DNA of 64,000 nucleotides from Synergistaceae bacterium (GCA_017439345.1 JAFSJJ010000010.1:10442-74441); one strand, 5' to 3'. Shown: positions 23,340 to 41,406, numbered from the stretch's first letter. Numbers and translations: made by a program. The notes: a model not told the origin generated them from the letters alone.

Positions 23340-23363
23340 ATTATGCCTCCTGCTTAATCACTC

Positions 23364-23657: not shown

Positions 23658-23661
23658 GTTT

Positions 23662-25524: not shown

Positions 25525-26396
25525 TATTGATTTAACTCCTTGTTGACGACATCGAGAATAACTGCGCGTAATTCAGGGTCTTCCAGTGCTAACTGGACAT
25601 TTGCCGAGAGCCAGCCTTTTTGAGTTCCGCAGTCAAATCTGCGTCCTTTGAAGACTACTCCCCATACTGGTTCTTGAGAGCATAATGTCTTGAGAGAGTC
25701 TGTGAGCTGAATTTCTCCGCCGGTGCCTGCCTGCTGGTTGTGCAATAACTCAAATATCTTAGGCGATAATACATAGCGTCCCATGATTGCTAAGTTGCTG
25801 GGTGCTTCCTCAAGCAAGGGCTTCTCTACCATGTCAACGATCTTGTGAATTCCTGGTTCAACTTCGAACTGAGATTTCACTATTCCATAGCGCGAGACGT
25901 TCTGAGGCTCGACCTCTTCAAGGGCTATGACACTGCCGCCCATCTTCTCATGAACGCGGATTAACTGGGCAATAACAGGGTCTTCAGGGTTAATAAATAC
26001 GTCATCGGGCAAAGCTACTGCAAAGAACTCATTCTTGCACATAGGCTCGGCACATAATACAGCGTGGCCAAGTCCTAGAGGCTGTCTCTGCCTGACAAAT
26101 AATATCTCGGCCATGTTCGCTATCTTGAGCATCTTCTCATAAAGTGCTACTTTGCCTCGTGATTTCAGCATTTCCTCGAGTTCAAACGACCGGTCAAAAT
26201 AGTCCTCAATTGAACGCTTGGCACGTCCTGTTATCATTATAATCTCGTTACAGCCTGAAGCTACTGCTTCTTCGACACCATACGAAATTATCGGACGATT
26301 GACAAGGGGAAGCATTTCCTTCGCAAGTTCCTTCGTTACAGGCAAAAAACGAGTCCCTAAACCAGCAACAGGAAATACACATTTCGTAATCTTCAT
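25524..26396 (-). CDS. galU: UTP--glucose-1-phosphate uridylyltransferase
   Basis: Has KCVFPVAGLGTRFLPVTKELAKEMLP at the N-terminus and VEKP. The stop overlaps the downstream ATG by 1 nt. Confidence 0.9.
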   Translation of the reverse strand: MKITKCVFPVAGLGTRFLPVTKELAKEMLPLVNRPIISYGVEEAVASGCNEIIMITGRAKRSIEDYFDRSFELEEMLKSRGKVALYEKMLKIANMAEILFVRQRQPLGLGHAVLCAEPMCKNEFFAVALPDDVFINPEDPVIAQLIRVHEKMGGSVIALEEVEPQNVSRYGIVKSQFEVEPGIHKIVDMVEKPLLEEAPSNLAIMGRYVLSPKIFELLHNQQAGTGGEIQLTDSLKTLCSQEPVWGVVFKGRRFDCGTQKGWLSANVQLALEDPELRAVILDVVNKELNQ

Positions 26397-26414: not shown

Positions 26415-28166
26415 TTAAAAATTTTGAGCAAACTGACTGTTATACAAATCCGCATAAAGTCCGTTCTTCGCTAATAATTCATCGTGAGTCCCGGCTTCAC
26501 AGACATCGCCGTTGTTCATGACTAGAATTAAATCAGCGTTCTTTATCGTCGATAACCTGTGAGCTATTACAAATGACGTTCGACCCTTCATTAAGTTATC
26601 AAGGGCTGACTGTATTATTTTCTCTGTCCTAGTATCTACGTTCGATGTAGCTTCGTCAAGTATCAATACAGGCGAGTTCTTTATCATTGCTCGTGCTATA
26701 GTGATTAACTGCTTCTGACCTGATGAAAGACTTGATATGTCATTTATAATCGTGTCTACGCCTTCGGGTAATGCCTTCACCGAGTAATCAAGACCTGATG
26801 CTTTTAATACGTCATTCAAGTTCTGATCTGAAATATTCTTGCTGGAATAAATAATATTATCTTTAACAGAACCTTCAAACGTCCATATATCCTGAGGCAC
26901 TAAGCCTATAAAGTCATGAAGCCTTTCACGCGATATTGTGCTGATGTCTACTCCGTCAAAGTATATTTTGCCGTCATTCAGGTCATAAAAACGCATTAAT
27001 AAATTCATCATCGTTGACTTGCCTGCGCCGGTCGGCCCTACGATTGCTACTTTCTGGCCGGATTTAATATCTGCGCTGAAATCATGAATTATAATCTGTC
27101 CGGGAACATAGCCGAATTTAACATGTGAGAATTTTACGTCTCCCATGATTTTATTATTATTATTCTCTTTCTCTGGTGAAGTTATTTCGCTGATTTCAGG
27201 CTCCTCGAGAAGCTCAAATATTCTCTCTGCTGAGGCCATCGCAGGCTGCAAGAACGATATGAACTGCGAGATATTTATCAACATCTGAGAAAATATATTC
27301 GAGTACGTCATAAATGCTACCATGACACCTAGTGTTACGCCTTCGGATTTCGAGAGAATTAAATTAGACGTTACAAATACTATCAAGAACTGCGCTATTA
27401 ACCCTCCTGCTGTCATTATGGGCTGCATTATTCCTGATACGAACTGCGATAACCTGGAGCTTTCATATAATTCATCATTGCCGGCTTCGAATAAGGCTTT
27501 AATTCTGTCCTCGTTGTTAAATGCCTTTATTACTGAATGACCGTTGAAGGCTTCTTCTGCAAGAGAATTCACTTTGCCTAACAACATCTGCTGCTTGATA
27601 AAATACGGCTGGGATCTGCCCATCAGGAATTTATTTATATTCAGGAATATAATACTCGTAATCACAGTAACAAGAGCTAATATCACATTCATATAGAGCA
27701 TTATGCACGATGCGCAGATTAATACTACTATTGACGTAACTATTGCGCTTAAATTATTCGTCAAGGCATTAACCATTATGTCTATATCAGTAGTTATCCG
27801 GCTCATAATATCTCCGGTCTGGCGGGTATCAAAATATGACAGGGGTATTCTATCAAGTTTGGCATTTATCTCAGTTCGTAAATCACGGCCCATTAACTGT
27901 GAGACATGAACAAGCATTATATTCTGAATGAACGTTAATAAACTTCCTCCGGCAAGAAATATCACAGCAAGTCCGGAATAATATAACACTTGATTAATAT
28001 TCATAGGCTTAGAAATTCCTGACGCTATCTCATCAGTGATTAGCTTGACTAACTGTGGCAGTACTATCGAAGCTATCGTCCCGATTAATGCAAGTATTAA
28101 CGAGATAAAAATTTTTGCGCTGTATATCTTGAGACGTGAATATATTTTTGCAATTAGTCTTAGCAT
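26415..28166 (-). CDS. ABC exporter subunit (TMD-NBD), consensus ATPase site
   Basis: Six-helix TMD. Walker A is GPTGAGKST, the signature is LSSGQKQL, Walker B is LILDEATSNVD and the H-loop is IAHRLST. Confidence 0.9.
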   Translation of the reverse strand: MLRLIAKIYSRLKIYSAKIFISLILALIGTIASIVLPQLVKLITDEIASGISKPMNINQVLYYSGLAVIFLAGGSLLTFIQNIMLVHVSQLMGRDLRTEINAKLDRIPLSYFDTRQTGDIMSRITTDIDIMVNALTNNLSAIVTSIVVLICASCIMLYMNVILALVTVITSIIFLNINKFLMGRSQPYFIKQQMLLGKVNSLAEEAFNGHSVIKAFNNEDRIKALFEAGNDELYESSRLSQFVSGIMQPIMTAGGLIAQFLIVFVTSNLILSKSEGVTLGVMVAFMTYSNIFSQMLINISQFISFLQPAMASAERIFELLEEPEISEITSPEKENNNNKIMGDVKFSHVKFGYVPGQIIIHDFSADIKSGQKVAIVGPTGAGKSTMMNLLMRFYDLNDGKIYFDGVDISTISRERLHDFIGLVPQDIWTFEGSVKDNIIYSSKNISDQNLNDVLKASGLDYSVKALPEGVDTIINDISSLSSGQKQLITIARAMIKNSPVLILDEATSNVDTRTEKIIQSALDNLMKGRTSFVIAHRLSTIKNADLILVMNNGDVCEAGTHDELLAKNGLYADLYNSQFAQNF

Positions 28167-28168
28167 GA

Positions 28169-29899
28169 TTAATCCTGTCCTGTCTGCGATTTCGCTATTT
28201 CCTGATAGAGTGGGCAGCTTTGCATTAACTCCGAATGAGTACCTTCACCGACTATGCGCCCTTTGTCTATCACTATGATTTTATCAGCGTTAATTATAGT
28301 GCTGATTCTCTGGGCTGCTATCAAGATCGTTGCGTCCTGAAATTCTTCTCGTAAGGCTTGGCGTAACTTCTTGTCAGTAACTAAATCAAGTGCCGAAAAC
28401 GAGTCATCGAATAAATATATCTCAGCAGATTTACTTACTGCGCGCGCGATTGTCAATCTCTGCCTCTGGCCTCCTGAAAAATTACCGCCCCCGTGTTCGA
28501 CTTGAGAATTATAGCTGTCAGGTCTGGCCTCGATAAAGTCTTTAGCCTGTGCAATTTCCGAAGCTCTCTCAAGATTATTATTATTCCCTGAGAAATTTAT
28601 ATTATCTGCTATAGTACCTGTGAACAAAATATTTTTCTGGGGGACATAGCCTATTCTTGAGCGTAAATCAGCAAGATTGAAGTCTTTAACGTCAACGCCG
28701 TCTACTAGAATTCTGCCCTCTGAAGCGTCATATAATCTGGGAATTAAATTCAAGAGCGAACTCTTTCCGCACCCTGTAGGCCCGATAAATGCTACTGTCT
28801 GACCTCGTGAAACACTAAATGATATATCATCAAGAGAATTTGCTCCTGCTCCGGGATACTTGAAGCTGACGTGATTGAATTCTATAGTTCCGGACTTCGC
28901 AATTTCGCCTGAATAATTACCGTCCTGAATGCTCACGGGAGAATTAATTACTTCATTCACGCGGCCTGAACATACTAATAATCTTGGGAGCTGAATAAGC
29001 ATTAACGTTATAATCATGAAAGCATTGATGACTATTCCGCTGTAGAAAAATGCTACCAGCATATCAGAAAACAGAGCAAGTTTCGCTGATGAGTCAGCAA
29101 GAGACATTATCATATATGCTCCGGTTACATAAATAATTATTCCCGGTATGCTCTGAAAGAACGTTAAAACAGGATACATCGCTGACATTCGGGAATTGAC
29201 ATATATATTAGTGTCAGTCAACGGCGCGTTTACGTCATTAAATCTCTTGGCCTGATAATCATAAGCGTTGTAGGCGTGAATTACTCTTATACCTGATATA
29301 TGCTCGAACGAAACTTGATTTAGCTTGTCAGTTAATTTATTTACTATTTTCATTCGGGGCGTTAATGACGTTATCAAGAATATCACGAATATTATTATAA
29401 TCAGGACTATCGAAGCTATTACACCAGTCCAGATATAATTTTGCTTTGATAAATTTATCACGGCTAGAATTCCGGTCAACGGAGCACGAATTATGATCAT
29501 AGGCAGCATTGATATAAACATTTGAATTTGCGTTATATCAAGTGTACAGCGCGTTAATAAGCTCGGCACTGTGAACTCGTTGACTTCCTTCAATGAGAAA
29601 TCTATAACTTTGTCAAATGTCCGTGTCCGTAATCTTTTAGCTATGATGCTTGCTAGTTTTGCCGTGAAATATACGCTTCCTACACCGCATAACAAATTAG
29701 CCCCCGCACAGGCTAACATCGCTAAACATAAAGGCACTATTGCACTGAACGGGGTATTATTATTCTGTAATAAAAGCGTTATATTCTTGATATATTCCGG
29801 GAATAACAAATCAAGTCTGGCCTGACATGCTATTAATACAAGAGCAATAACAAGCCAGATATATTCACGGGCTTTGATTTGACGAAATATATTTTTCAC
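28169..29899 (-). CDS. ABC exporter subunit (TMD-NBD), degenerate ATPase site
   Basis: Walker A is GPTGCGKSS and the signature is FSGGQRQR. Walker B is YLFDDSFSALD (catalytic Glu replaced by Asp) and the H-loop is IAAQRIST (His replaced by Gln). Confidence 0.9.
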   Translation of the reverse strand: MKNIFRQIKAREYIWLVIALVLIACQARLDLLFPEYIKNITLLLQNNNTPFSAIVPLCLAMLACAGANLLCGVGSVYFTAKLASIIAKRLRTRTFDKVIDFSLKEVNEFTVPSLLTRCTLDITQIQMFISMLPMIIIRAPLTGILAVINLSKQNYIWTGVIASIVLIIIIFVIFLITSLTPRMKIVNKLTDKLNQVSFEHISGIRVIHAYNAYDYQAKRFNDVNAPLTDTNIYVNSRMSAMYPVLTFFQSIPGIIIYVTGAYMIMSLADSSAKLALFSDMLVAFFYSGIVINAFMIITLMLIQLPRLLVCSGRVNEVINSPVSIQDGNYSGEIAKSGTIEFNHVSFKYPGAGANSLDDISFSVSRGQTVAFIGPTGCGKSSLLNLIPRLYDASEGRILVDGVDVKDFNLADLRSRIGYVPQKNILFTGTIADNINFSGNNNNLERASEIAQAKDFIEARPDSYNSQVEHGGGNFSGGQRQRLTIARAVSKSAEIYLFDDSFSALDLVTDKKLRQALREEFQDATILIAAQRISTIINADKIIVIDKGRIVGEGTHSELMQSCPLYQEIAKSQTGQD

Positions 29900-29905
29900 G
29901 TTATA

Positions 29906-31045
29906 TTAACCTGCAAAGCCTTCCCATAAGTCTTTGAAATCATGTGTCTGCAAGTACTTAGGGTAATTCTTTCTCACTGTTTCCCATACTTTAGGGTCGC
30001 TTGTAATAGAAAGGCCGTCAACTATAGCCGGATAATTTCTGTGAAGTTCATAGAACAAGAATTCAACGTATTCTGCCTTGTCGCCGAACTCCTGAACAAA
30101 GAAATCATGAATAACATTATCGGCTCTCATACCGTCTTCGCCCATGTTCTGATAATCTATCCTGATAAAGCCGTCTTCTAAGCTCTTCATCATGTGAGCT
30201 AATACCAGCCAGAATTTTTCGGGATTGTCTCTGAAGTAGGCTATTTTCATAACTGAAGACTTCATGAGATTTAATCCGTTCAACTGTGATGATACTGCCT
30301 TTAATGTTCCCTTAGGGCTTCTTGTGCTGCGTGATAAAGACGTAAAACTCGGCCTGTATATATACCAACCTCCGGGGTTGACAACGTAATTCTTTGCATT
30401 GAACAGACACTCAAGCGAGAATATTAAATCTTCGGCTAACTTCATTTCACCGAACTTGATATTATGCGCGAGTAAAAATTCCCTCTTGTAAAGCTGGTTC
30501 CATACTGCCCAGTGATATTTATGCTTTAGCCAGCCGTCAAGACGTTCGTCCATATCATCATTAATTAACGTAACTTCCTGAGCAGGCTGAAAATCAAGAT
30601 GAACTACAAACGATAATACACTATCTTTATCCGTCATATCAACAGGGATATATTCGCCTTTAGCAGGTATAATCGGGTTTAAGCCTGTGTTATGAACTAC
30701 ATCTGCGTTAAATTTACTTGCAGCACTGAACATTTTCTCGAACATTTCGGGCTGAACTTGATCATCGCTGTCAACAAAACCTATATATTTGCCTCGTGCT
30801 TCCTGAATTCCCCGATTACGGGCTTCACCTGCTCCCATGTTTCTGGGCTGATTAATTAACTGTACACGTTCATTATTTCCGTAAAGTTCTTCGCATATCT
30901 TCATGCTGTTATCCGGTGTGCAGTCGTTCACAAGGACAACTTCAAGATTTGAGAGCGTCTGATTCAATATGCTGTCAACGCACACTTTGATATACTTTTC
31001 CACGCCGTAGACAGGCACTATAACTGATACATCGAAATTATTCAT
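29906..31045 (-). CDS. GT2-family glycosyltransferase
   Basis: Contains VSVIVPVYGVEKYIKVCVDSILNQT and FVDSDD. Start moved to the second ATG, 10 nt after AGGAG. Confidence 0.85.
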   Translation of the reverse strand: MNNFDVSVIVPVYGVEKYIKVCVDSILNQTLSNLEVVLVNDCTPDNSMKICEELYGNNERVQLINQPRNMGAGEARNRGIQEARGKYIGFVDSDDQVQPEMFEKMFSAASKFNADVVHNTGLNPIIPAKGEYIPVDMTDKDSVLSFVVHLDFQPAQEVTLINDDMDERLDGWLKHKYHWAVWNQLYKREFLLAHNIKFGEMKLAEDLIFSLECLFNAKNYVVNPGGWYIYRPSFTSLSRSTRSPKGTLKAVSSQLNGLNLMKSSVMKIAYFRDNPEKFWLVLAHMMKSLEDGFIRIDYQNMGEDGMRADNVIHDFFVQEFGDKAEYVEFLFYELHRNYPAIVDGLSITSDPKVWETVRKNYPKYLQTHDFKDLWEGFAG

Positions 31046-31076
31046 GTAAATCATCTCCTGGATTAAATCGATTAAA

Positions 31077-31901
31077 TCAAATCAAATCAAAATTTTTCAG
31101 GGCGTTATATATTCCATCGTGATCTATGTCATCTGTTATATAATCCCCGTATTCTTTGGCTGCGTTTGAACCGTTGCCCATAACTATGCCGGTTCCTGAA
31201 GAGTTCAGCATTTCCAAATCATTAACGCTGTCTCCGAATGCATAAGTATCGCTCACTGACAAGCCGAGTTTCTCACAAAGCCTGCGAATTCCTGAACCCT
31301 TGCTCATGCCCTCAGGGACTATTTCGAAGACATCAAGGCGTTCACGATTTATAAATATGGGCTGCTGAATCAGGACATCATAATATTCTGACATGAGATT
31401 TAGAAATTTCACCCTGTCCCACTTGTCAGCTTCACTGCCTGCTACACATGTTGCCTTGCTGATTATTAATTCGCTGTCAACGTCAATATCGTTAATTGAA
31501 AGCAGATTATCGCCTACAGATTTTCTCAACGTGTCAACTTGTCCTGGAGGGTTAAAGCCTTCGGGGTCGAAATAAAGATTATAACGACCCTCGTAGACTG
31601 CACCGAACTTGTATTTACGAATGGCATTCAGTGTCTGAACAGCAAGCTCATGGGAAAGCTCATAATAAAATAACGTATTATTATCGTGTTCTATCAAAGT
31701 TCCGCAGCCGGATATTATTCCGCTGAAGCCTAGATTTATAACTTGAGACGGGATATTAACTTTCGTTCGTCCTGTGCAGATAAATGCAAGATTGCCTTTT
31801 TCCTGAAGCATTTTGATTGAATCACGTGTACTTTCAGGGATAAAGCCTTTGCTGGTCATTAAAGTCCCGTCTATATCAAAGAAAGCCGCTTTCCTGTTCA
31901 T
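31077..31901 (-). CDS. HAD-IIB (Cof-type) sugar-phosphate phosphatase
   Basis: Contains AAFFDIDGTLM, CTGR and the C-terminal GDSVNDLEM. Confidence 0.85.
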   Translation of the reverse strand: MNRKAAFFDIDGTLMTSKGFIPESTRDSIKMLQEKGNLAFICTGRTKVNIPSQVINLGFSGIISGCGTLIEHDNNTLFYYELSHELAVQTLNAIRKYKFGAVYEGRYNLYFDPEGFNPPGQVDTLRKSVGDNLLSINDIDVDSELIISKATCVAGSEADKWDRVKFLNLMSEYYDVLIQQPIFINRERLDVFEIVPEGMSKGSGIRRLCEKLGLSVSDTYAFGDSVNDLEMLNSSGTGIVMGNGSNAAKEYGDYITDDIDHDGIYNALKNFDLI

Positions 31902-31904
31902 GAT

Positions 31905-33221
31905 TTATTCATGAATTAAACGTTCGACTAACATTTTCTCACAGCTGATAATTCCGACATCGTTAATATAATTATCTATTCCGGCCTCACTAAATCTGCG
32001 TGAAATGCTCTGTACGAGTTTGTCGCTGTCAAATCTCTGCGTTAATCTGAACGTTATATCTTCCTCGTTAGCTCCAACGAAAATATAAAATCCGTCCGTC
32101 GTTGCATGAGGTTCCATTTGAACGCGTTCGACAAGCTGATAATATTCCGGCCTCAAAGTTACGCGTCCTGGATAAGTTATAACGTAAGTATCAGGATTTG
32201 AGCCTTCGTTTGAGTGTGCATTAGAATTCTCGCGTTCAATCTCTTCAATTGACTTAGTGCCGTTCTCAAAGCCTTTAACCGTATTAACTTTTCGTGCTAC
32301 GACAGAGCCGTAATTCTCTTTGTGCAGCTGTGCTTTCATGAAACCTGATAATTCAGTGCATATTTCCGGAAGACTCTTAACGCGTAATTCAGGAGTTATA
32401 GGCAGAATAAAGCTCTCTGAACAGTTCTCGTCAGTCCAGATATTATATAAGTGCCTCAAGTCAACAGGAATTTTCGCAATAATAGTCTGGTCTTCGGGTT
32501 TATACGTGTCATAGACGGCTAAAGTAGTGCATGTTACTAACAAGGGAACAAATGAGACGCCTAACTCTTTAGTCTTTGCTATGAACTGCTTTAGATTTAA
32601 CATGATTTCATAGCTGTGCATCTGGTCGCGTTCTTCAGGGTAAATATCTTCGACTTCAGGGGTCATGTGAAATAAATTCTCAGCCTTAAACTTCCATGAC
32701 GGCGCAATACTTTCATCGGCTAATACTGCATAAGGATTTACGAGGCCTTCTGCTTCGGGGCTGGCATGTAATCTAACGTCTTCATCGGGCTGAACGTCAA
32801 AGCCTTCAAGTTTCGCGTAGTGATATAAAAGCGTCTTCCAAATCGGCCATGATCCTTTGAAGTCCGTCATTCCGTGAAAGAATAATACTGAGAAAGACTT
32901 TTCACCGGTAATAAGAAAATAAAATAAATACCCGTTAGTGTCATCTGTGCCGTAATAGTGCCTTACATCAGGGTCATCAAAGAACGCTATTTCTTTATCA
33001 GAATTATCGATCTTCCAGACCTTATTATCTTTTATTACGGGTCTGAATGCAAAGTTAGGGTATGCCTCAAAAGTTTTCTTGGCTGCAAGTTTCAGATGTT
33101 CGAGATTAACAGGCCTGGTAAGCGTGAAGCTCATTCGGTTGCTGAATGTCGTTGAATGTCCTGCTCCCCTGTAGAACATCATTTTGTTAGAGTAACCTAG
33201 TTCCCTAAGTTCCATATTCAT
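31905..33221 (-). CDS. Condensation/CAT-superfamily-like acyltransferase (HxxxD = HGMTD)
   Basis: Start moved to ATG 33221, 12 nt after AGGAGTG. Contains FFHGMTDFKGSWP. It is a paralog of 37800..39095 along its full length. Confidence 0.65.
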   Translation of the reverse strand: MNMELRELGYSNKMMFYRGAGHSTTFSNRMSFTLTRPVNLEHLKLAAKKTFEAYPNFAFRPVIKDNKVWKIDNSDKEIAFFDDPDVRHYYGTDDTNGYLFYFLITGEKSFSVLFFHGMTDFKGSWPIWKTLLYHYAKLEGFDVQPDEDVRLHASPEAEGLVNPYAVLADESIAPSWKFKAENLFHMTPEVEDIYPEERDQMHSYEIMLNLKQFIAKTKELGVSFVPLLVTCTTLAVYDTYKPEDQTIIAKIPVDLRHLYNIWTDENCSESFILPITPELRVKSLPEICTELSGFMKAQLHKENYGSVVARKVNTVKGFENGTKSIEEIERENSNAHSNEGSNPDTYVITYPGRVTLRPEYYQLVERVQMEPHATTDGFYIFVGANEEDITFRLTQRFDSDKLVQSISRRFSEAGIDNYINDVGIISCEKMLVERLIHE

Positions 33222-33262
33222 GATAAATAAAATCACTCCTTAATAAATTTAAGAAAAAATAC

Positions 33263-35827
33263 TTATCTAGCGCACACACTCTGAATTATACGCGACTTGA
33301 AAAATTTTATTGCTTTTGGACTGTCCGTAACGTGAACGGGGTCTATTGCATCAGGTAAAACATTACGCTTATACTGGAGAATATCACGATATAATATATG
33401 CGTCTTTGGCTCGTTGAACATGATTTTGACTTCACGGGACAGCATTCTTGATACAAGATTTTCTGCACGTGAAATTTTTTCCTTATCGAGTTTTACGCCT
33501 TCATAATACGGAAGCTCCAGAATTAGGCAGTAAGTCTCATCGTCCTTGAAAAATACGAAATCACGGACTTCAATATTTATCTCGCGCTCGCACAATATTG
33601 CAGATTCGTACATATCATCTTCGCTTATTCCCCCGTAAATAGCATAACGCCTTCCTGGAGCTGAGAATATTAAATTCTTATCCGTGAGTTCTTCTGCCTT
33701 GATTATAAGTTCTGTCCTGTATCTATAAAGCCCTGCCAATGTCGATACTATCAGCCTGTAAGACCTGCCCGGTTCTAACTGGTGAGCGTAATACATTCTG
33801 CCGTCATCAAGAGCTTCGAATTCATAAAATGCTGATGTCAAACACAACTTGAACATGTCATGAGAATACACGCTGCCTGCAAAGACTTCTTCTGAGGCAA
33901 TTCCGGCATTCTCTACTGGAATATTCTTTACATATAATTTCAGGTGATGAGCATGTATCTTGAACGCTCCTGAAGTGTTGCATATGAATTTCTCAAGCTC
34001 TGGCCATATCTGACTTATTGCATCGTCTGCATAGAAATCTACTGTCCTGAGTTCTTCGGCCCGTGCCTTATCCGGTGAAATTCTCTTGTTCAGAGCTTCC
34101 CTTAAGCTGTCGGGGAGACCTTCTCTATCACTGATACAGCCTGCTTCTATGTCATTGCAAAGTTCCTGCCAGTGTTCGAACATAAACTCAAGATTATCAA
34201 TCAGTATCCATGCATTAGGCGCGAAAATAACGTCAAGGCCTCGTTCCTTGAGTGCAAAGAATAACCGTGCGTAATCGGCATTCAATATCTCATTCGGGAA
34301 CATCAGCTCAACAGGATTTATCAAATTCAGCCTGTTATTCAGTTCAGTCAAATTGTTCGAGTATAATTCTGACAATATCAAGCCCAGCAAAGTATTTGTA
34401 TACGTGTTGTCCAAGTCAAGACCGGATGAGTGATACGGCAGACTTTCAAGCATCAGGAAAATTTTACGCCCTGCAATCAGCTTCCGAAACTCATCAACGT
34501 AATATTTCAAGTGCCTCTGTGTAAACGGAAGCCTTCTCGCTTTACCCATTATGCCGTGAGTCAGGGCATACGATGTTATGTCGCTGTCTGTGAATATTCC
34601 TGTCTCTGCTATTCTTGCTGTAAGTCTTATCATAGGCTCGTAAGTGTCATAATCAGTCAAGGGCAGCCGCGAAGAATAACCTTCCATTGTCATTATATTC
34701 TCGAACTGATAGCGTTTTCCGTAATCAGAGTGTTCACCGTTCTCAAGAATATTCTTCAATATTTGAGCCTGACAATCTTTCACAGTTATGGGCATTGGCT
34801 GTCTTCGATACGAGATAAAGCTCCGGCTTGAGTCTAATTCTCCCTCATTGATTATAACCTGAGGAAGTGTCAAAAGCTCTTTGCGCCTCTGGTCAGAATA
34901 TAATTTTGTCGCAGGCAGAGGAGTCAGCATTCTCACATATGGTTCAAGAATTTCACGTATTTCATTGCGCGTCTCTTTAGTAATAACAGTGCTTGAGAGT
35001 ATCAGCATTGCCTCATGGGTCAACAAATTATGCATGACATCATTCATATTGAACCCGAAACTCAGACCGGTATCAAATATTTTCTTGAAGCCTAGTGCAT
35101 ACGATATTAACTTCTCATTCGAAAGATCCGTTGCCTGTACAAGCGAGGCACTGTTCACAAAATACACATAGCCAATTAACTGAGGCAGCAAACATACATT
35201 ATCAGCATAACCATACGCCTTGACGTTGAAAGCAAAATCCTCTGCAAAGAATATATCTTCGTCAAAACGCAGATTATGTTCATCGAGAAATTTACGCCTG
35301 TACAGCTTTGAAGTTACCATGCCCCATATTACGTTAAAAATTTTCTTGTCGTCCCAGTTATGCCTGTTCACTACAATGCGTTCTTGAGTCTGATCCCACA
35401 AAACTTTTTCGTTCAAGATTAAGTGCGACTCAGCCTCTAACTCAATCTCACGCCGGAACGCGCATATATCAGAGTTCGTGTTGATTATATTATTCAACGC
35501 AGATTTTATACACTCAGGGGTATATTTATCATCGCCGTCAAGAAATCCTACATAATCGCCCGATGCATGTTCAAGCGCGTAATTTCTGGGACTTGAAGGG
35601 GTGTGATAATCATTATCAAGAATGCATATTTTCACGTTGTCATAACCTGCAAGCATTGTCCGTATACTGTCTTGATAGTCTTTAGGCGAATTGTGAACCG
35701 CCACTACCCACTCAATATCAGCAAAGCCGAACGTCTGAGCCTTCATTGACTCAAACGCCCGTGCGAAGATATTTAAATCTACGTTGTGAAGAGGTGTTAT
35801 TACAGAAATTTTATAATAATCTCTCAT
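33263..35827 (-). CDS. Fusion protein: N-terminal GT2 glycosyltransferase plus C-terminal GH3-like (acyl-acid amido synthetase type) adenylating domain
   Basis: GT2 part: ISVITPLHNV...FLDGDD. From about residue 345 it shows the GH3 pattern AQILKNILENGEHSDYGKRYQFENI...RLPLTDYDTYEPMIRL...SYALTHGIMGKARRLPFT. Confidence 0.7.
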   Translation of the reverse strand: MRDYYKISVITPLHNVDLNIFARAFESMKAQTFGFADIEWVVAVHNSPKDYQDSIRTMLAGYDNVKICILDNDYHTPSSPRNYALEHASGDYVGFLDGDDKYTPECIKSALNNIINTNSDICAFRREIELEAESHLILNEKVLWDQTQERIVVNRHNWDDKKIFNVIWGMVTSKLYRRKFLDEHNLRFDEDIFFAEDFAFNVKAYGYADNVCLLPQLIGYVYFVNSASLVQATDLSNEKLISYALGFKKIFDTGLSFGFNMNDVMHNLLTHEAMLILSSTVITKETRNEIREILEPYVRMLTPLPATKLYSDQRRKELLTLPQVIINEGELDSSRSFISYRRQPMPITVKDCQAQILKNILENGEHSDYGKRYQFENIMTMEGYSSRLPLTDYDTYEPMIRLTARIAETGIFTDSDITSYALTHGIMGKARRLPFTQRHLKYYVDEFRKLIAGRKIFLMLESLPYHSSGLDLDNTYTNTLLGLILSELYSNNLTELNNRLNLINPVELMFPNEILNADYARLFFALKERGLDVIFAPNAWILIDNLEFMFEHWQELCNDIEAGCISDREGLPDSLREALNKRISPDKARAEELRTVDFYADDAISQIWPELEKFICNTSGAFKIHAHHLKLYVKNIPVENAGIASEEVFAGSVYSHDMFKLCLTSAFYEFEALDDGRMYYAHQLEPGRSYRLIVSTLAGLYRYRTELIIKAEELTDKNLIFSAPGRRYAIYGGISEDDMYESAILCEREINIEVRDFVFFKDDETYCLILELPYYEGVKLDKEKISRAENLVSRMLSREVKIMFNEPKTHILYRDILQYKRNVLPDAIDPVHVTDSPKAIKFFKSRIIQSVCAR

Positions 35828-37796
35828 GAGTTGCTAAGAAATTCTTTATATCAAAATCCGTGCTGAACAGGAAATCAAGGTTGTAATTATTATGCCCGTC
35901 CTTGTCTTTGGTTATTGACATGTCATCTGATGCAAACGCAATAATCTTTGCGCTCTCAGAAGTCTTGCGCTGTTTCTCGAAATCATAAGGCTGGCCGGAA
36001 TCTTTGAACGTAAGCCTGAGGTAATCACTAAAGCATACTAGATCTAAGTGAATATCGCCTACGTCATCAAATGCGTTCATAATGCGCTCGATAAGCATTT
36101 CTTCTGAAGCAAGACGGATTCTGCGCGCCTTTCTGACATCAAAGCCGAACTGCATTGCATAGCCTTCTATCATCGAAATTAACGGGTCTATAGCATATGA
36201 AGTGTTCTTGACTACAACACTGCTGACTTCAACGCCCTTCTTGAGTTCGCCTTCAAGTTCAAGGGTTCTCAGCTTCATTAACATATCGACATGCAGTTTT
36301 CTCTGGTCAATTTTGCCTGTAGCATTCAGCGGGAACTTGTCATATATAAAGAAATACGCAGGGACTTTGAACGAGCCTACAGTTTCCTTAAGATGCTTGC
36401 GTAATGCGTCCTCATCAAATTTTGCGCCTTCCTTGAGAGTTATGCACGCACCCAAGTTCTCACCGTAAAGCCTGTCTTTGAAGCCGAATATACGACATTC
36501 CTTAATGCCTTCTAAGCTGATTGCCTGAGCCTCGATTTCGCCGGGGGTGATATTCTCTCCGCCCTTGATAATAATATCTTTAATGCGTCCTGCGATTCTT
36601 ACGTTGCCGTCTTCGTCCATAACGCCTAAATCTCCGGTATGGAACCAGCCGTTTTCGTCAATAGCCTGTTTCTCCGGAGGCAGCTTGTAATATCCGTTCT
36701 TAACATGGAAGCCTCGAGTTACAAGTTCGCCGACTTCTCCAGCAGGAAGCAGCTGATTATTTTCACCGCAAATGCCTATCTCGACTTCAGGTATTCTGCG
36801 TCCTATTGTGTTATGCCTCACTGAAATATTATCTTCAGGCCGTGCCATAATGAAAACTGTAGCTGTCTCAGTCATTCCGAACATATTCAAGAACGTTGCG
36901 TTATTCAATGCCGTCTCAAACCTCACGAACTGAACAGGTGACGTATAACTTCCTGCTATTCCGCACATCCTGACATACGGCGCGCATTTGGCTGTAGCGT
37001 CTTTGCTGTCTATTATAGACTGATATACTGCTGCTACTGACCATAAGTCGCTTACATGCTCTCTATTTACTATATCGGCTATAGCGTCAGCTTTCACTTT
37101 CTCAGGAATATATACAGTTCCGCCAAGACATAAATATATGCACGGGATACTCAATCCAAACGCATGGAACAGGGGAAGTGCTACACATGCCTTAGTGCCT
37201 CGAATTGACTTGAACTCATCGGCAAATATCAGCGAACAGTTAATCATCGAGTACTGTGAAGTCAATACAGCCTTAGGAAATGAAGTAGTCCCTGAAGTGT
37301 AAATAATATATGCATCGTCCTTAATGTCCCATTTTGAGTCATCAACAGCAATTTTCTCACATGAAGCAAAATCCGTCTCAAGATACGAGAACACTTTATC
37401 TTGAGGAAGCTCAAAGGATTTAGCTAGCATTTCAGCCTCTGAAGCAACACCTTTAGTATCATGAGTAGCTCCGTAAAGGACATATTTAGAATCTGCAAAT
37501 GTTACTAACGGGGTTACATCATTGATAGAATAATTCGAGTTAAGGCACACTGCAACACCGCCGGCGTGAACAATGCCGTAATAAGTGCAGAGCCATTCAG
37601 GTGAAGGACTTCCCCATATTACAACATGGTCATTTTTCTTGACACCGTGCTTGACTAGATACGATGATACAGCGTCAATATTCTCAATCAGCTGCTTGTA
37701 AGTAACCCGCTTATCTCCCATTACAACAGCGTCTTTGTCAGGGTGCAGGGCTGCCTGCTCGGTGAATATCTGATAATACGTCTTGTTTGTGAACAT
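35811..37796 (-). CDS. ANL-superfamily acyl-AMP/CoA ligase with a C-terminal RsbW/SpoIIAB-like domain
   Basis: AMP-binding motifs are IIYTSGTTSFPKAV, FGMTET, HTGDLG, IIKGGENI and ATGKIDQRKL. An extra ~140 aa follows (residues ~520-661), containing RRIRLASEEMLIERIMNAF...GDIHLDLVCFSDYLRLTFKDSGQPYDF. Confidence 0.8.
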   Translation of the reverse strand: MFTNKTYYQIFTEQAALHPDKDAVVMGDKRVTYKQLIENIDAVSSYLVKHGVKKNDHVVIWGSPSPEWLCTYYGIVHAGGVAVCLNSNYSINDVTPLVTFADSKYVLYGATHDTKGVASEAEMLAKSFELPQDKVFSYLETDFASCEKIAVDDSKWDIKDDAYIIYTSGTTSFPKAVLTSQYSMINCSLIFADEFKSIRGTKACVALPLFHAFGLSIPCIYLCLGGTVYIPEKVKADAIADIVNREHVSDLWSVAAVYQSIIDSKDATAKCAPYVRMCGIAGSYTSPVQFVRFETALNNATFLNMFGMTETATVFIMARPEDNISVRHNTIGRRIPEVEIGICGENNQLLPAGEVGELVTRGFHVKNGYYKLPPEKQAIDENGWFHTGDLGVMDEDGNVRIAGRIKDIIIKGGENITPGEIEAQAISLEGIKECRIFGFKDRLYGENLGACITLKEGAKFDEDALRKHLKETVGSFKVPAYFFIYDKFPLNATGKIDQRKLHVDMLMKLRTLELEGELKKGVEVSSVVVKNTSYAIDPLISMIEGYAMQFGFDVRKARRIRLASEEMLIERIMNAFDDVGDIHLDLVCFSDYLRLTFKDSGQPYDFEKQRKTSESAKIIAFASDDMSITKDKDGHNNYNLDFLFSTDFDIKNFLATHERLL

Positions 37797-37799
37797 GTT

Positions 37800-39095
37800 T
37801 TATTCAACCTTTCTTAATTTTTCTAAGTCTACTATATTATGACTTATACGGCCTCTATCCGTGAATTCAGTCTTGAAGCCTGCTTTGATCAGCTCAGAGT
37901 TCATCGCACGCGCTAATTTATCATCATCAAATCTCTGAATTGACGTAACGTTCAGAATATCTCTAAACGTAGTTATAATGAAATACGACAAAGCAAACGG
38001 AGCATCAACGAAAATATTCTCGAACAGGTCATTAACTGCGCCGGGCATATCCATAATGCCAAGATAACTTGTACCGTAAGTTACTCCGCCGGGAACTGAT
38101 GACGTAAGCTCTTTACTCTTTGATATAATATCCTCTTTCTCGAACTCCCGAACCGCACAAGCCTTGTTGTATAACGATTTAGCGTAATTCTCAGGCTTCC
38201 TTTGAAGATTAATGACGTTCTTAATATAAGCGCAGAAATCTTCATCATTCATTGCAAGCTCTTGACTTGACACAGGGATAAACACAGCGTCTGAGAAATT
38301 CACTATGCTTGAACACTTGAACACAGCACGAAGATCAACGGGCAGGGCAGTTAATATATTCCGTGAGCCGATATCATAATTATTATTTACAGCTTTTACC
38401 ATAAGACTTATCATCAACGGCATAAAACTTGTATGCATTGACTTTGAAGCCTTCAGAAATTCACTCAGGCTCAGGGTAATTCTATAGTGATGAGAGTACG
38501 TTTCAGCAGGATTATAGAACTCAACTGGAAGCGGGTAATAATTCGCGAAGTCCGGCACAAACGACGGCTCTATGTCCTTATCAGCAAAAGTATTATACGG
38601 GTCAAGATTTTCAGGAGTATCCCAGTTTTCAGGCTCTTTAGTCCTTATTTCGGCCTTAGCAAGTTCTTCAGGTGAGAGTTCAATCTTTGCGTAATAATAC
38701 AATGCTGTCTTGAGAAAACTGCTCAGACCCCGCCAGTCAGATATTCCGTGATACATCGAGATAATAACATGCTTATCATCTTCAGAGTCCTGAATAATTG
38801 CCATCAAGTACCCGTTAGTCTCATCTGAACCGAGATTAATTATACGGTCATGTCTGATTACTTTCACAGGTGCATTATTGCTCTCAAAGAAAATTTTGCC
38901 TTCTTTAATTACAGGTCTGTAAGCGAACTCCGGGAAAAGCGATAAAGCCTTCTCGAGACCTGCTCTCAGCGCGTCAACATCAACTTTGGACTTGAAATAA
39001 AGATTAACTCGAACGTCCATAGTTGCACCACTACCCGAAGCTGTATAGTAAAAATATTTGTCAGAAGCTCCGGGAACACGTAAATTACTATTCAT
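37800..39095 (-). CDS. Condensation/CAT-superfamily-like acyltransferase (HxxxD = HGISD)
   Basis: Contains SMYHGISDWRGLSSF. It is a paralog of 31905..33221 (shared ETNGYL, YYYAK and LPVDLR blocks). Confidence 0.65.
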   Translation of the reverse strand: MNSNLRVPGASDKYFYYTASGSGATMDVRVNLYFKSKVDVDALRAGLEKALSLFPEFAYRPVIKEGKIFFESNNAPVKVIRHDRIINLGSDETNGYLMAIIQDSEDDKHVIISMYHGISDWRGLSSFLKTALYYYAKIELSPEELAKAEIRTKEPENWDTPENLDPYNTFADKDIEPSFVPDFANYYPLPVEFYNPAETYSHHYRITLSLSEFLKASKSMHTSFMPLMISLMVKAVNNNYDIGSRNILTALPVDLRAVFKCSSIVNFSDAVFIPVSSQELAMNDEDFCAYIKNVINLQRKPENYAKSLYNKACAVREFEKEDIISKSKELTSSVPGGVTYGTSYLGIMDMPGAVNDLFENIFVDAPFALSYFIITTFRDILNVTSIQRFDDDKLARAMNSELIKAGFKTEFTDRGRISHNIVDLEKLRKVE

Positions 39096-40590
39096 GATAT
39101 TTTCTGCTCCATAAAGTTAATTTTTCGGGTGTGAAATCTTTATACGGCTCGAATATATCTGCATCGAACCTGTACATTTTATTCCTTTCCCAGTCTGAAC
39201 CGGGGTTGCCTGTCTTGGCGAAATTTACTGCACGTTCAAAGAATTTATCACCGGTTACGAAATCTGCTTCAGTCCAGTAATCTTTTCTCAAGTCCGAATA
39301 GTGCTTGAATAAATACGCCAGCTCCGAAGAGTGGAAAGAACCCCATATATTTGACTCAGGTCCCGGCATAACGTGTTCAAAGCGCAGCAGCCATGTATTA
39401 TTATTTCCTGTCTTAGAGCGTGCATTAGCGAATAAAACATTTTCTGCTGATAAGAAATCCTGCTGCATAACAGCCAGCGAACCGGGAAATTTATCAGGCG
39501 GGTAAATCGCCATAGCTTGAGAGAATAACTCATCACCGAAGAATTTTCTTGCTGAATTTATATAATCCTGCTCGTTCTCGGCTTCAATGAACGGGAAAAG
39601 TAAATAATCATTGGCAACAAAACTTGCTATATAGTCATAATCATTAGTCAAGCCCTGAATTACTCCGTCATGAAAAGTTTTGTCAAGCACGTAACTATCA
39701 AGACAATACGGCAGATACTGTTTAGGCAGCTTTAATAAATCATCAGCCGGAATACTGCGCATTTGTTCTGCATCGAGCGAACCTAATAATTCATCACCAA
39801 GTGCTTCACAGTGCTTCAAAGGCTCATAAATAAAAACTTTGTCGAAACCTTTACCAGTCTTACTCGGAACGTTTGAAGCAGGCAGATGAAACGTTGTATG
39901 ACTCATTGCGAAAACACGCTTGAACAGTCCCTTAGCCAGCGGTGAGACAGCAAGAGTATTGACCGCAGCAGCCCCCGAAGATTGTCCTGCAATAGTGATA
40001 TTGTCAGGATTCCCTCCGAAAGCCTTTATGTTGGCTCGAACCCATTTTAACGCCTTAATCTGGTCTAACAGCTGATAATTTCCTGAAACGTGTTTATCAT
40101 TTTCAGAGCTTAAAGCAGAACTTGCCAGCAGTCCGAGAATTCCTTCTCTGAAATTAACGCTGACGAATATAACTCCTGAGCGTGCAAGATTTTCACCGTC
40201 ATAGACTTCACACGATGAGCCTCCTGAAATGAAGTTGCCTCCGTGAAAGTAGACGATAACAGGTTTATTATCTGCATTATCGTTAGGAGACCATATATTG
40301 AGATACAAGCAGTCTTCTGAATAGCCTTTAGTAGTGTCGATAATGAACTCGCTACTCCACATCAAGAATGCTTCCTGCTTAGCCTGAATTGCACTCTTTG
40401 CCCATGAAGTACAGTCTCTAACGCCGTCCCATTGAATTACGTCCTGAGGGGCTTTCCATCTCAAATTTCCAACAGGAGGGGCAGCATATGGAATTCCCTT
40501 GAAGATATTAACGGCTTTGTCGCTGGTCATACAGCCCGAGATATTTCCGCCTTCAACGCTGAATACGCCAGTGCTCAATAAATTTTGCAT
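39088..40590 (-). CDS. Type-B carboxylesterase (para-nitrobenzyl-esterase-like), no signal peptide
   Basis: Contains FKGIPYAAPPVGNLRWKAP, EDCLYLNIWSP, VYFHGGNF and the nucleophile GQSSGA. AAGGGAG lies 12 nt upstream of the ATG. Confidence 0.88.
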   Translation of the reverse strand: MQNLLSTGVFSVEGGNISGCMTSDKAVNIFKGIPYAAPPVGNLRWKAPQDVIQWDGVRDCTSWAKSAIQAKQEAFLMWSSEFIIDTTKGYSEDCLYLNIWSPNDNADNKPVIVYFHGGNFISGGSSCEVYDGENLARSGVIFVSVNFREGILGLLASSALSSENDKHVSGNYQLLDQIKALKWVRANIKAFGGNPDNITIAGQSSGAAAVNTLAVSPLAKGLFKRVFAMSHTTFHLPASNVPSKTGKGFDKVFIYEPLKHCEALGDELLGSLDAEQMRSIPADDLLKLPKQYLPYCLDSYVLDKTFHDGVIQGLTNDYDYIASFVANDYLLFPFIEAENEQDYINSARKFFGDELFSQAMAIYPPDKFPGSLAVMQQDFLSAENVLFANARSKTGNNNTWLLRFEHVMPGPESNIWGSFHSSELAYLFKHYSDLRKDYWTEADFVTGDKFFERAVNFAKTGNPGSDWERNKMYRFDADIFEPYKDFTPEKLTLWSRKYHE

Positions 40591-40737: not shown

Positions 40738-41406
40738 ATGAAAACGAAAAAATATTTTTACCTGCTGATACTTGCTTTAATGTTCAGTGCTTTTGCTTCA
40801 GGAGGCTGCGGCGGCAGTTCCGATGGTTTCGTCTATACGCAGCCTGCCACAGAGTCGCTTCTTAACGGTGAATGGCGTATTGTTTCCGGGCATGTAGAGA
40901 TTTACAACATGGAAGTATCTGGAGACTATATTATCCCCAGTTTTGACGAGCTACCCTTATACACAGAATTTTCTGTTACAGTCAGCGAAAACGGCAGCAA
41001 TGATAAATATACAATTACACTTAAAGGCGGCGGTGTTTACGCACAGGACAATACGACTTCAGTGTTTGGGCAGTTTTACCCTAAGTACTTCTCAAACTAT
41101 GATACAGATCAGCAGAAGATTGCATTAACTTTTGATTCATTGCCCATAGTTCTTGGCACCCCGTTTTACACGCAGCTTGATGCTGAAAACTTTACCAGCG
41201 AAGATTTAAGCGAAGGTCTTACTGACAACGTTAACATGGACATAATCAGCGAGTATCTGCCAGAAGAGCCTATAGAAATTTACTCATGGGAGATAGCACC
41301 GGAACATCTATCTTTGTTCTGGATTGAGAGCGGTGACATCGATACACTTTACTGGGAATCTGTAGGCAACACAAATTATTATATAAAAATGGAGCGTCAA
41401 GATTAG
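40738..41406 (+). CDS. Lipoprotein of unknown function
   Basis: Has a signal peptide with the lipobox FASGGC. GGAGG lies upstream. Confidence 0.7.
   Translation: MKTKKYFYLLILALMFSAFASGGCGGSSDGFVYTQPATESLLNGEWRIVSGHVEIYNMEVSGDYIIPSFDELPLYTEFSVTVSENGSNDKYTITLKGGGVYAQDNTTSVFGQFYPKYFSNYDTDQQKIALTFDSLPIVLGTPFYTQLDAENFTSEDLSEGLTDNVNMDIISEYLPEEPIEIYSWEIAPEHLSLFWIESGDIDTLYWESVGNTNYYIKMERQD

Follow-up and report, generated by a model that had tools for sequence, protein, structure and literature searches.

A family 2 glycosyltransferase fused to a GH3 domain with decayed adenylation motifs in a Synergistaceae bacterium

Does a GH3 domain that is covalently joined to a glycosyltransferase, and that exhibits an unusual phosphate-binding loop, still work as an adenylating enzyme? 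This question is raised by the gene P0001, found in a 64,000-nucleotide (nt) stretch of DNA from a rumen Synergistaceae bacterium (GCA_017439345.1 JAFSJJ010000010.1:10442-74441), which we call the window. An earlier reading of the sequence alone (the original prediction) had proposed that P0001 encodes a family 2 glycosyltransferase (GT2) fused to a GH3-like domain with a divergent phosphate-binding loop (P-loop), and had left it undecided whether adenylation is retained. As judged from sequence, P0001 corresponds to a cytoplasmic two-module enzyme made of an intact GT2 half and a GH3 half that probably no longer works as a ligase.

An intact GT2 half and a GH3 half with four decayed motifs

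P0001 is an open reading frame (ORF) of 854 amino acids (aa) plus a stop codon, beginning with ATG, as given by the ORF list and its translation (Table 1). The plus-strand reading of the same interval was rejected, that frame being riddled with stops. The minus-strand translation contains ISVITPLHNV, FLDGDD, AQILKNILENGEHSDYGKRYQFENI, RLPLTDYDTYEPMIRL and LTHGIMGKARRLPFT; every peptide quoted in the original prediction is thus found, on a strand that it had not stated. Pfam identifies Glycos_transf_2 (PF00535) at residues 8-149 (E-value = 3.2e-16, 60.1 bits for a cut-off of 23.3), the GH3 N-terminal domain (PF03321) at residues 349-638 (E-value = 8.9e-41, 140.5 bits for a cut-off of 23.6) and GH3_M (PF23571) at residues 661-713 (E-value = 2.9e-9, 37.3 bits for a cut-off of 23.6). 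The two domains of the proposed architecture therefore both score above the Pfam gathering cut-offs; GH3_C (PF23572) exhibits no Pfam match in P0001 itself. An AlphaFold2 (AF2) model built on a 100-sequence alignment reaches a mean predicted local distance difference test score (pLDDT) of 91 and a predicted template modelling score (pTM) of 0.85. The N-terminus of P0001 aligns with the N-termini of all its homologues. A membrane protein was considered and rejected, since the sequence has no transmembrane or hydrophobic segment (maximum Kyte-Doolittle value of 1.38 for a 19-residue window). Across the family the most conserved region is the GT2 core, where mean identity is 52% and 49 of 234 columns reach at least 90% conservation, followed by the GH3 N-domain (36%, 23 of 289 columns) and the GH3 C-subdomain, the fastest-evolving part (28%, 5 of 130 columns).

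The first half of the protein (residues 1 to about 330) matches the wall-teichoic-acid glycosyltransferases TarP (6h4m; TMt 0.70-0.75), RmlT and TarS in Foldseek, with E-values of 1e-16 for TarP and RmlT. The alignments to TarP and RmlT, about 340 columns long, also cover the helical subdomain at residues 236-327. In pairwise HMMER alignments, the counterparts of the DGDD motif of P0001 are DSDD (TarS) and DHDD (RmlT), that of SPRN is KPRN (TarS), and those of E196-D197 are AED (TarS) and WED (RmlT). By a count along the alignment, the RmlT residue equivalent to D197 is the position mutated in the PDB entry 8bz8 ("D198A variant"). Besides the motifs of Table 1, residues R125, Q216, Y220 and Y222 are invariant in 100 homologues. 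P0001 thus exhibits a family-model match, a GT-A fold, a DxD motif and an acidic base, and the assignment of its N-terminal half to GT2 holds. We predict that this half is a catalytically intact, inverting GT-A enzyme of the TarS/TarP/RmlT type.

The assignment of the C-terminal half to GH3 is supported by Pfam, by a profile of the fusion family and by Foldseek alike. The family profile matches ten plant GH3 crystal structures (E-values of 1e-44 to 1e-50). Foldseek with residues ~345-854 retrieves 29 GH3 chains at probability 1.00 (E-values down to 7.8e-30), and the best GH3 superposition of the AF2 model is on GH3.15 (6avh; TMt 0.77-0.78, root mean square deviation of 3.5 A). The C-terminal 145 residues of P0001 alone gave chance matches only against the PDB, and the family profile was needed to place them.

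The nucleotide-binding motifs of GH3 enzymes are, in AtGH3.11 numbering, S100SGTSQGRPK109, Y330GSSE334 and G397LYRYRLGD405 (PMC12493201). All three are altered in P0001. HMMER aligns the loop THGIMGKARRLPFT ("altHGIm.GKARRlPFT") to "ltSSGTSaGERKLMPT" of VvGH3-1 and also to "slSSGTsQGRPKFIPFT" of JAR1, which reproduces the alignment by which the loop had been called divergent. Of motif 1, only two glycines remain, together with a basic residue in place of the lysine. Motif 2 has lost the tyrosine and the second serine, and retains one serine and the glutamate. In motif 3 the position of the ribose-binding aspartate is taken by Leu707; G699 and R702 of this motif are invariant among 100 homologues. 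The P-loop is one of four signatures that have decayed, the fourth lying outside these motifs: near the C-terminus, an aspartate stands at the conserved lysine of the PDQIKP motif. We infer that this lysine is equivalent to the "QYKxPR" lysine of plant GH3s and to the A10 lysine of the ANL superfamily; the alignment of the family C-part profile to the plant GH3 structures ends before the PDQIKP motif. The substitutions across the four signatures are S to H, T to I, Y to I, D to L and K to D. P0001 is therefore a GH3 member by sequence models and by the fold of its N- and C-terminal domains, and departs from the family at the three nucleotide-binding motifs. From a comparison with canonical relatives and with OlsH S115A (PMC12493201), the answer to the question of whether adenylation is retained in P0001 is most likely no.

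Repeated decay within a widespread fusion family

A word-indexed search of 5.8 billion proteins matched 197 clusters. Among the 120 clusters listed, nearly all are 690-905 aa long and have Pfam lists with both PF00535 and PF03321; the GT2+GH3 domain combination is thus already visible in public annotation. The names given to public relatives are "GH3 auxin-responsive promoter family protein" and "GH3 family domain-containing protein", and those so named stem from Synergistaceae, Lachnospiraceae, Butyrivibrio and Atopobiaceae. A single-sequence scan of the GTDB genomes with P0001 returned nothing. An alignment-based scan, with one genome per GTDB species, was needed, and yielded at least 149 loci, of which 80 were kept for the analysis of gene context. 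The carriers belong to Synergistota (Fretibacterium, Synergistaceae), Selenomonadaceae, Veillonellaceae, Lachnospiraceae, Ruminococcus, Eubacterium, Coriobacteriia, Prevotellaceae, Bacteroidaceae and Kiritimatiellia. They span five phyla, are almost all metagenome-assembled genomes from rumen or gut, and some hold two copies. Both halves lie in a single ORF of ~690-880 aa in the 149 loci, as in almost every one of the 120 clusters listed; we therefore reject the possibility that the fusion arose by misassembly or a frameshift, or that the relatives carry two separate genes. The claim of a covalent fusion stands, nearly all relatives being fused in the same order and at a similar length. One metagenomic contig (L092:918-5416) carries a shortened AMP-binding gene (449 aa), then a GH3-only ORF (P0054, 529 aa), then GT2 fragments. 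P0054, the only GH3-only neighbour examined, is 52% identical to the GH3 half of P0001, and the locus is apparently a rearranged or decaying version.

Within the genus of the window, about 5 of 36 genomes hold a full copy of the fusion, at only 37-47% identity, and one further genome holds a partial copy only (residues 222-847, 34% identity). Another genome of the genus (G021:C79:35938-37438) exhibits short frames of 67-149 aa matching residues 64-130, 357-404, 457-532 and 799-839, which look like a decayed pseudogene copy. The fusion was absent from the scanned genomes of the other families of the order. From this patchy spread within its own genus and its absence from the other families, we conclude that the fusion is an accessory, horizontally exchanged gene. 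The genome of the window holds a single GH3 gene.

The four signatures vary widely across the family. Among 100 homologues, the second serine of motif 1 is kept in 13%, its threonine in 9%, the tyrosine of motif 2 in 28% and the aspartate of motif 3 in 22%. Among 76 fusions taken from GTDB genomes, 16 are canonical and 58 decayed. The fusions of Selenomonas ruminantium (TSGTSGAPK / FASSE / GLYRYATED / PDQIKPAH) and Oribacterium (SSGTAAGQK / YAASE / GLYRYRLGD / PDQIKPIR) are examples of the canonical state. The lysine of the C-terminal motif is present in 12 of 13 canonical long fusions versus 9 of 32 decayed ones, and in all stand-alone relatives read. The C-terminal subdomain was scored absent in 29 of the 76 genome-derived fusions, a few of which merely end at a contig edge, and many fusions lacking it also have P-loop deletions of 3-5 residues.

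An exhaustive HMMER search with the GH3 half against 1.84 billion cluster representatives gave 2527 matches. The nearest non-fused relatives are stand-alone GH3s of about 500 aa (~33% identity), followed by typical bacterial GH3s of about 570 aa. All stand-alone GH3s that were read are canonical; the closest exhibit TSGTxGxP(K/R), Y(A/S)SSE, GLYRYx(L/M)xD and DQIKP. A maximum-likelihood tree of the whole protein requires 7-9 changes of motif state. In a tree of the GH3 half, rooted on the typical 570-aa GH3s, the canonical stand-alone GH3s and a partly canonical clade of fusions lie nearest to the root, and the starred branches force at least six changes. P0001 belongs to a clade (98*) of 14 members, all decayed, from Synergistota, Ruminococcus, Eubacterium, Blautia and other Lachnospiraceae; this clade is nested in an all-decayed group of 23 members. 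As it is implausible that four canonical motifs were re-invented, the canonical state is ancestral and decay occurred many times. We read the changes of motif state as independent losses.

The decayed GH3 half has not been left to drift. Over the GH3 N and M region, the ratios of non-synonymous to synonymous substitution rates (dN/dS, Nei-Gojobori method) are similar in decayed (0.07-0.31) and canonical (0.08-0.42) lineages. Examples of the former are a Fretibacterium pair (0.14), Ruminococcus pairs (0.14) and a Selenomonadaceae pair (0.12). P0001 and its 75%-identical metagenomic relative give 0.12, at saturated dS. In the clade of the window, 23% of the GH3 columns are at least 90% conserved, including E669, G699, R702 and W608. 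Purifying selection and conservation together indicate that the decayed module is maintained for a function that does not need a canonical ATP site.

Operon, recurring neighbours and possible roles of the fusion

P0001 lies in an operon of 13 genes, which occupy the minus strand between 40590 and 23040 and follow each other in the order carboxylesterase, HxxxD acyltransferase (P0122), ANL ligase, fusion, second HxxxD protein (P0123), HAD phosphatase, second GT2, two ABC half-transporters, GalU, STAS-ANL ligase and two small STAS proteins (Table 1). Both ANL ligases resemble fatty- or medium-chain acyl-CoA ligases in NCBIfam. P0001 is translationally coupled to the ANL-ligase gene upstream of it, its start codon overlapping the stop of that gene by 17 nt. 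The ANL counterparts directly upstream of the fusions in Synergistaceae and Fretibacterium loci are 70-73% identical to that of the window, and the ANL-fusion order is also kept in Ruminococcus and Clostridia loci. At the sequence level P0122 matches nothing in Pfam, NCBIfam or the PDB, a search with a 10-sequence profile included, and was placed by predicted structure only. The top Foldseek matches of its AF2 model are the mannosylerythritol-lipid (MEL) acyltransferase 8jos, TRI101, PapA5, BAHD enzymes and condensation (C) domains of non-ribosomal peptide synthetases; the model thus points to a CoA-dependent acyltransferase/condensation fold. The second GT2 and the GT2 half of the fusion share only 25% identity over about 250 residues. 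The second GT2 gives the stronger matches to the TuaG/PRK10073-type models that both hit, and is a distant paralogue rather than the product of a recent duplication. By analogy with glucosylglycerate or Cj1435-type routes, the Cof-type HAD phosphatase was considered as a core partner; this is unsupported, no counterpart being found in the 80 related loci. Divergent from the first gene of the operon is an ORF of 222 aa (40738-41406, plus strand) that might be a regulator; it has no Pfam match and no counterpart in the 80 loci. The genome is that of a diderm bacterium, with TolC and AcrB at 41456-46070 and many surface-glycan glycosyltransferase genes.

Table 1. Features of the fusion gene P0001 and of its operon, in window coordinates
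Feature	Coordinates	Strand	Evidence
Whole GT2-GH3 fusion gene, P0001	33263..35827	-	ORF list, translation, Pfam, AF2 model
GT-A catalytic core, residues 1-235	35123..35827	-	PF00535; phmmer to TarS 5tze, RmlT 8bz4, 3bcv; Foldseek TarP 6h4m
SPRN (S79-N82) nucleotide-binding motif	35582..35593	-	P80, R81, N82 invariant in 100 homologues; S79 invariant in a 27-sequence set
DGDD metal/nucleotide-sugar (NDP-sugar) motif	35528..35539	-	D97, D99, D100 invariant in 100 homologues
E196-D197, D197 the presumed catalytic base (inverting GT-A)	35237..35242	-	E196 invariant; D197 at least 90% conserved
Helical subdomain after the GT-A core, residues 236-327	34847..35122	-	Four long helices in AF2 model
Disordered interdomain linker, residues 328-344, EGELDSSRSFISYRRQP	34796..34846	-	pLDDT <50; variable length and sequence in the family
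GH3 N-terminal domain, residues 345-640	33908..34795	-	PF03321; family profile E-value down to 9.5e-51; Foldseek 4epl E-value 7.8e-30
Decayed motif 1 (P-loop), T423-H-G-I-M-G-K-A-R431 for (S/T)SGT(S/T)xGxxK	34535..34561	-	Alignments
GH3 central domain, residues 641-715	33683..33907	-	PF23571, E-value 2.9e-9
Decayed motif 2, I643-A-S-E-E647 for Y(A/G)SSE	33887..33901	-	Alignments
Decayed motif 3, G699-L-Y-R-Y-R-T-E-L707 for GLYRYRxGD	33707..33733	-	Alignments; Asp to Leu707
GH3 C-terminal subdomain, residues 716-854	33266..33682	-	Family C-part profile matches GH3.12, VvGH3-1, JAR1 at E-value 1e-15
Decayed C-terminal motif, D829 at the conserved Lys, PDAIDPVH for PDQIKP(V/T)(R/H)	33341..33343	-	Family alignment
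Type-B carboxylesterase, first operon gene	39088..40590	-	Pfam COesterase 2.8e-82
HxxxD acyltransferase (predicted), P0122	37800..39095	-	AF2 pLDDT 87.5; Foldseek; H116, D120 invariant
ANL (fatty-acyl-CoA-ligase-like) with C-terminal extension of ~160 aa, directly upstream of the fusion	35811..37796	-	Pfam AMP-binding 2.4e-66; NCBIfam long-chain-fatty-acid-CoA ligase families
Second HxxxD paralogue, P0123, downstream neighbour	31905..33236	-	Same similarity cluster as P0122
Cof-type HAD phosphatase	31077-31901	-	Pfam; NCBIfam Cof subfamily
Second GT2 (382 aa)	29906-31054	-	Pfam
Two ABC half-transporters	28169-29899, 26415-28166	-	Pfam
GalU	25524-26396	-	NCBIfam TIGR01099, 352 bits (cut-off 326.8)
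STAS-ANL ligase	23662-25524	-	Pfam; STAS cluster
Two small STAS proteins	23364-23657, 23040-23339	-	Pfam; STAS cluster

De novo clustering of the ORFs in the 80 loci identified recurring partners of the fusion: HxxxD proteins (26 loci), ABC exporter pairs (23), APH-like kinases related to TIGR02172 (22), ANL ligases (20), MatE transporters with an RsbW-like HATPase_c_2 domain (16), carboxylesterases (15) and small STAS proteins (8). Acyl_transf_3 proteins, ATP-grasp ligases, pyruvyl transferases and extra GT2s also recur. The MatE transporters (~580-610 aa; L015:8207-9958, L013, L018, L047, L060) carry the RsbW-like domain at their C-terminus (Pfam E-value of 9e-8), in parallel with the RsbW-like tail of the ANL of the window (35811-36300) and the STAS domains at 23040-25524. 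A further relative of 951 aa, P0128, joins in Pfam a canonical GH3 (N, M, C) to STAS and APH-type kinase domains, and physically ties GH3 to the STAS and kinase genes recurring beside the GT2-GH3 fusions.

Other neighbourhoods differ from that of the window. In Blautia, Pseudobutyrivibrio and Lachnospiraceae loci (L035, L041, L045, L046), a decayed fusion truncated at its C-terminus is followed by one or two ATP-grasp genes (Pfam ATP-grasp_3); these adjoining ligases may be an alternative replacement of the lost ligase activity. Canonical Selenomonadaceae loci (L004, L006, L020, L028) exhibit RecR, GalU, a pyridoxal-phosphate (PLP) enzyme, the fusion, a TAXI-type TRAP solute receptor and GltS. 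The PLP enzyme belongs to the diaminopropionate-ammonia-lyase family and may be the source of an amine partner for an active GH3; this context is small and differs from that of the decayed loci. In four further loci (L058, L060, L067, L071) a polysaccharide pyruvyl transferase (PF04230) lies directly upstream of the fusion or one gene away. A pyruvate ketal is a sugar-borne carboxylate, and is conceivable as the GH3 substrate of canonical forms.

Where a locus had three or more genes on both sides of the fusion, we compared the neighbours within 8 kb of canonical and decayed fusions. An ANL or ATP-grasp ligase is found near none of 8 canonical versus 15 of 38 decayed fusions (Fisher p = 0.04), and an HxxxD protein near none of 8 versus 21 of 38 (Fisher p = 0.005).

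We consider it fairly probable, as a whole, that P0001 is an active glycosyltransferase carrying a non-adenylating GH3 module, within an accessory, horizontally mobile operon for the synthesis and export of an acyl glycoside or glycolipid. The GT2 half would transfer a hexose, most likely glucose (with UDP-glucose supplied by the GalU of the operon), onto a pathway intermediate. The GH3 module would be a former carboxylate-amine ligase that has lost its ATP-binding and adenylation residues, and with them adenylation. It would be kept to hold the acceptor by its carboxylate or acyl moiety, or as a platform holding the glycosyltransferase together with the neighbouring enzymes. Acyl groups would be activated by the two separate ANL acyl-CoA-type ligases and attached by the two CoA-dependent HxxxD acyltransferases, activation and acyl transfer by separate enzymes thus replacing what the ancestral fusion did alone. 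The carboxylesterase may trim or transacylate the acylated product, which the heterodimeric ABC exporter would carry out. The channelling between sugar transfer and ligation suggested by the original prediction is then plausible only for relatives with canonical motifs; for P0001, ligation is likelier to proceed through the separate ANL ligases and HxxxD acyltransferases.

Several observations weigh against this explanation. The loss of adenylation in P0001 is deduced from motifs alone. A remnant of the P-loop (G428, K/R431, R432, P434, T436) is conserved in the clade of the window, so that some nucleotide or phosphate binding may persist, and Glu706 lies one residue ahead of the lost aspartate of motif 3. 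The HAD phosphatase of the operon is not conserved in the related loci. The association between decay and ligase genes is not significant when phylogeny is taken into account, with four independent contrasts and none in the opposite direction, and two near-canonical Selenomonas fusions, outside the neighbour test, adjoin an HxxxD gene. Because of the small number of contrasts and these exceptions, replacement by separate ligases is suggestive only.

An explanation at the level of the operon, which overlaps with the others and which we regard as rather unlikely, is that the fusion decorates an envelope polymer (a teichoic-acid-like polymer, a secondary cell-wall glycopolymer or a lipid-linked glycan) to which the GH3 module binds. 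The similarity of the GT2 half to TarS, TarP and RmlT fits this idea, as do the pyruvyl transferases, Acyl_transf_3 O-acyltransferases, MatE/MOP-type exporters and extra GT2s of related loci, and the diderm genome with its surface-glycan genes. Pfam, however, finds in the operon neither a priming phosphoglycosyltransferase, nor a polymerase, Wzx/Wzy or a TarGH-type ABC-2 transporter. The exporters are MsbA-type half-transporters, and the combination of acyl-CoA ligase with BAHD/PapA5-like acyltransferases resembles the pathways of small glycolipids.

It is also unlikely, in our estimation, that an unorthodox nucleotide site still lets the GH3 half adenylate carboxylates and form amides or esters at the expense of ATP. 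This would make P0001 a truly bifunctional enzyme, as the original prediction suggested, that glycosylates an acceptor and joins a carboxylate to an amine or alcohol of that molecule. All four signatures deviate simultaneously, and two canonical ANL ligases are already present in the operon. Close decayed relatives have P-loop deletions and no C-terminal subdomain, with which adenylation by domain alternation is hard to reconcile. These facts have to be set against a complete GH3 fold, C-terminal subdomain included, predicted at high confidence and under purifying selection. The distal P-loop G..G..(K/R)R-L-P-x-T is conserved in the clade, acidic residues persist in motif 2 (E646, E647) and beside motif 3 (E706), and the existence of canonical fusions makes the combined chemistry the ancestral state.

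Finally, we hold it to be quite improbable that the GH3 half runs an ATP-independent reaction, for instance only the second half-reaction with acyl-CoA or acyl-AMP from the coupled ANL as donor and an amine or hydroxyl of the glycoside as acceptor: purifying selection, the conserved non-ATP residues (E408, R589, W608, E669, Y690, R702), the tight coupling to the ANL gene and the gene order kept across four groups of loci would agree with it, but most of these residues are general GH3 fold signatures common to the plant enzymes, the two HxxxD acyltransferases already cover acyl transfer, and we know of no precedent for a GH3 with an external activated acyl donor.

Beyond the single protein, a tentative extension of the non-adenylating-module explanation is that the fusions belong to an uncharacterised family of mobile glycoconjugate pathways. 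In this family the GH3 half of an ancestral glycosylating and ligating enzyme would have turned repeatedly into a pseudo-enzyme module that holds a substrate or serves assembly, with ANL or ATP-grasp ligases taking over, and assembly would be controlled by STAS/RsbW partner switching. STAS and RsbW-like domains are fused to ligases, to exporters and to GH3 itself (P0128). The products are possibly glycosylated acyl-amino-acid or acyl-glycoside lipids of rumen and gut anaerobes.

Significance and relation to known systems

In the literature searched, we found no paper describing or characterising a GT2-GH3 fusion, and OlsH (2025) is the only bacterial GH3 of known function, although bacterial GH3s are numerous. 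The fusion family forms a natural series with fully canonical adenylation sites at one end and fully decayed ones at the other, the decayed domain still being under selection. It makes testable what bacterial GH3s ligate when coupled to sugar transfer, and what role an ANL-superfamily fold plays once adenylation stops. It also links bacterial GH3 to glycoconjugate pathways, within a large cross-phylum family of the rumen and gut. The operons probably make acylated glycoconjugates of abundant anaerobes of these habitats, which could matter for envelope biology and host-microbe interactions. For annotation, the name "GH3 family protein" should not be taken to mean an active amido synthetase for most members of the fusion family.

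P0001 resembles the plant GH3s (AtGH3.11/JAR1, 4epl; AtGH3.12/PBS3, 4epm; VvGH3-1, 4b2g; AtGH3.15, 6avh) in its three-part fold and in common signatures including GLYR, FxEF and WP. Unlike in the plant enzymes, with which it is only 15-18% identical, the domain sits behind a GT2, the three nucleotide-binding motifs and the C-terminal lysine are replaced, and there is no sign of hormone-type substrates. OlsH of Singulisphaera acidiphila is a lyso-ornithine-lipid (N-acyl-ornithine) synthetase (PMC12493201; NCBIfam NF052613). It stands alone, keeps motifs 1-3 as TSGTTQGATK, TYPCSE and GMWSHLIGD, and works with an α/β-hydrolase partner, OlsI (PMC12493201). The operon of the window also has an α/β-hydrolase, its carboxylesterase. 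P0001 exhibits a histidine at the position of S115 of OlsH. Orthology with OlsH was rejected: NF052613 gives 21 bits for a cut-off of 620 (E-value of 1e-4), in a local match to residues 347-395 only.

The GT2 half shares with TarS (5tze), TarP (6h4m) and RmlT (8bz4) the GT-A core and helical region and the DxD, (P)RN and (E)D motifs, and all four proteins are soluble and cytoplasmic. The identity is only 16-22%, and the place of their C-terminal oligomerisation or carbohydrate-binding domains is taken by the GH3 module in P0001. No tar/tag or ABC-2 TarGH genes were found in the operon with Pfam, and the likeness is limited to fold and catalytic motifs.

For the canonical relatives, the closest functional analogy known to us is Cj1438 from the HS:2 capsule locus of Campylobacter jejuni, which is reported, from work of the Raushel laboratory, to join a glycosyltransferase to an ATP-grasp amidoligase that amidates glucuronate, and to be followed by a HAD phosphatase. 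By this description, Cj1438 and the canonical GT2-GH3 relatives of P0001 both join a glycosyltransferase to an ATP-dependent carboxylate-amine ligase in a glycoconjugate pathway. The ligase of Cj1438 is an ATP-grasp enzyme, whereas that of P0001 is of the ANL/GH3 superfamily and appears inactive. A HAD phosphatase is also present in the operon of the window, and ATP-grasp ligases adjoin several decayed, C-truncated fusions.

At the level of the whole operon, the closest parallels are with acylated glycolipid pathways. The fungal MEL pathway comprises the glycosyltransferase Emt1, the acyltransferases Mac1 and Mac2 and the exporter Mmf1. Neither this pathway nor the mycobacterial PapA/FadD acyl-trehalose pathways include, to our knowledge, a GH3 module. 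Foldseek ranks the MEL acyltransferase 8jos and PapA5 (1q9j) near the top among the structures similar to P0122, a likeness at the fold level only (11-13% identity). Like the operon that contains P0001, these pathways combine one or more glycosyltransferases, two CoA-dependent HxxxD acyltransferases, acyl-activating ligases and a dedicated exporter.

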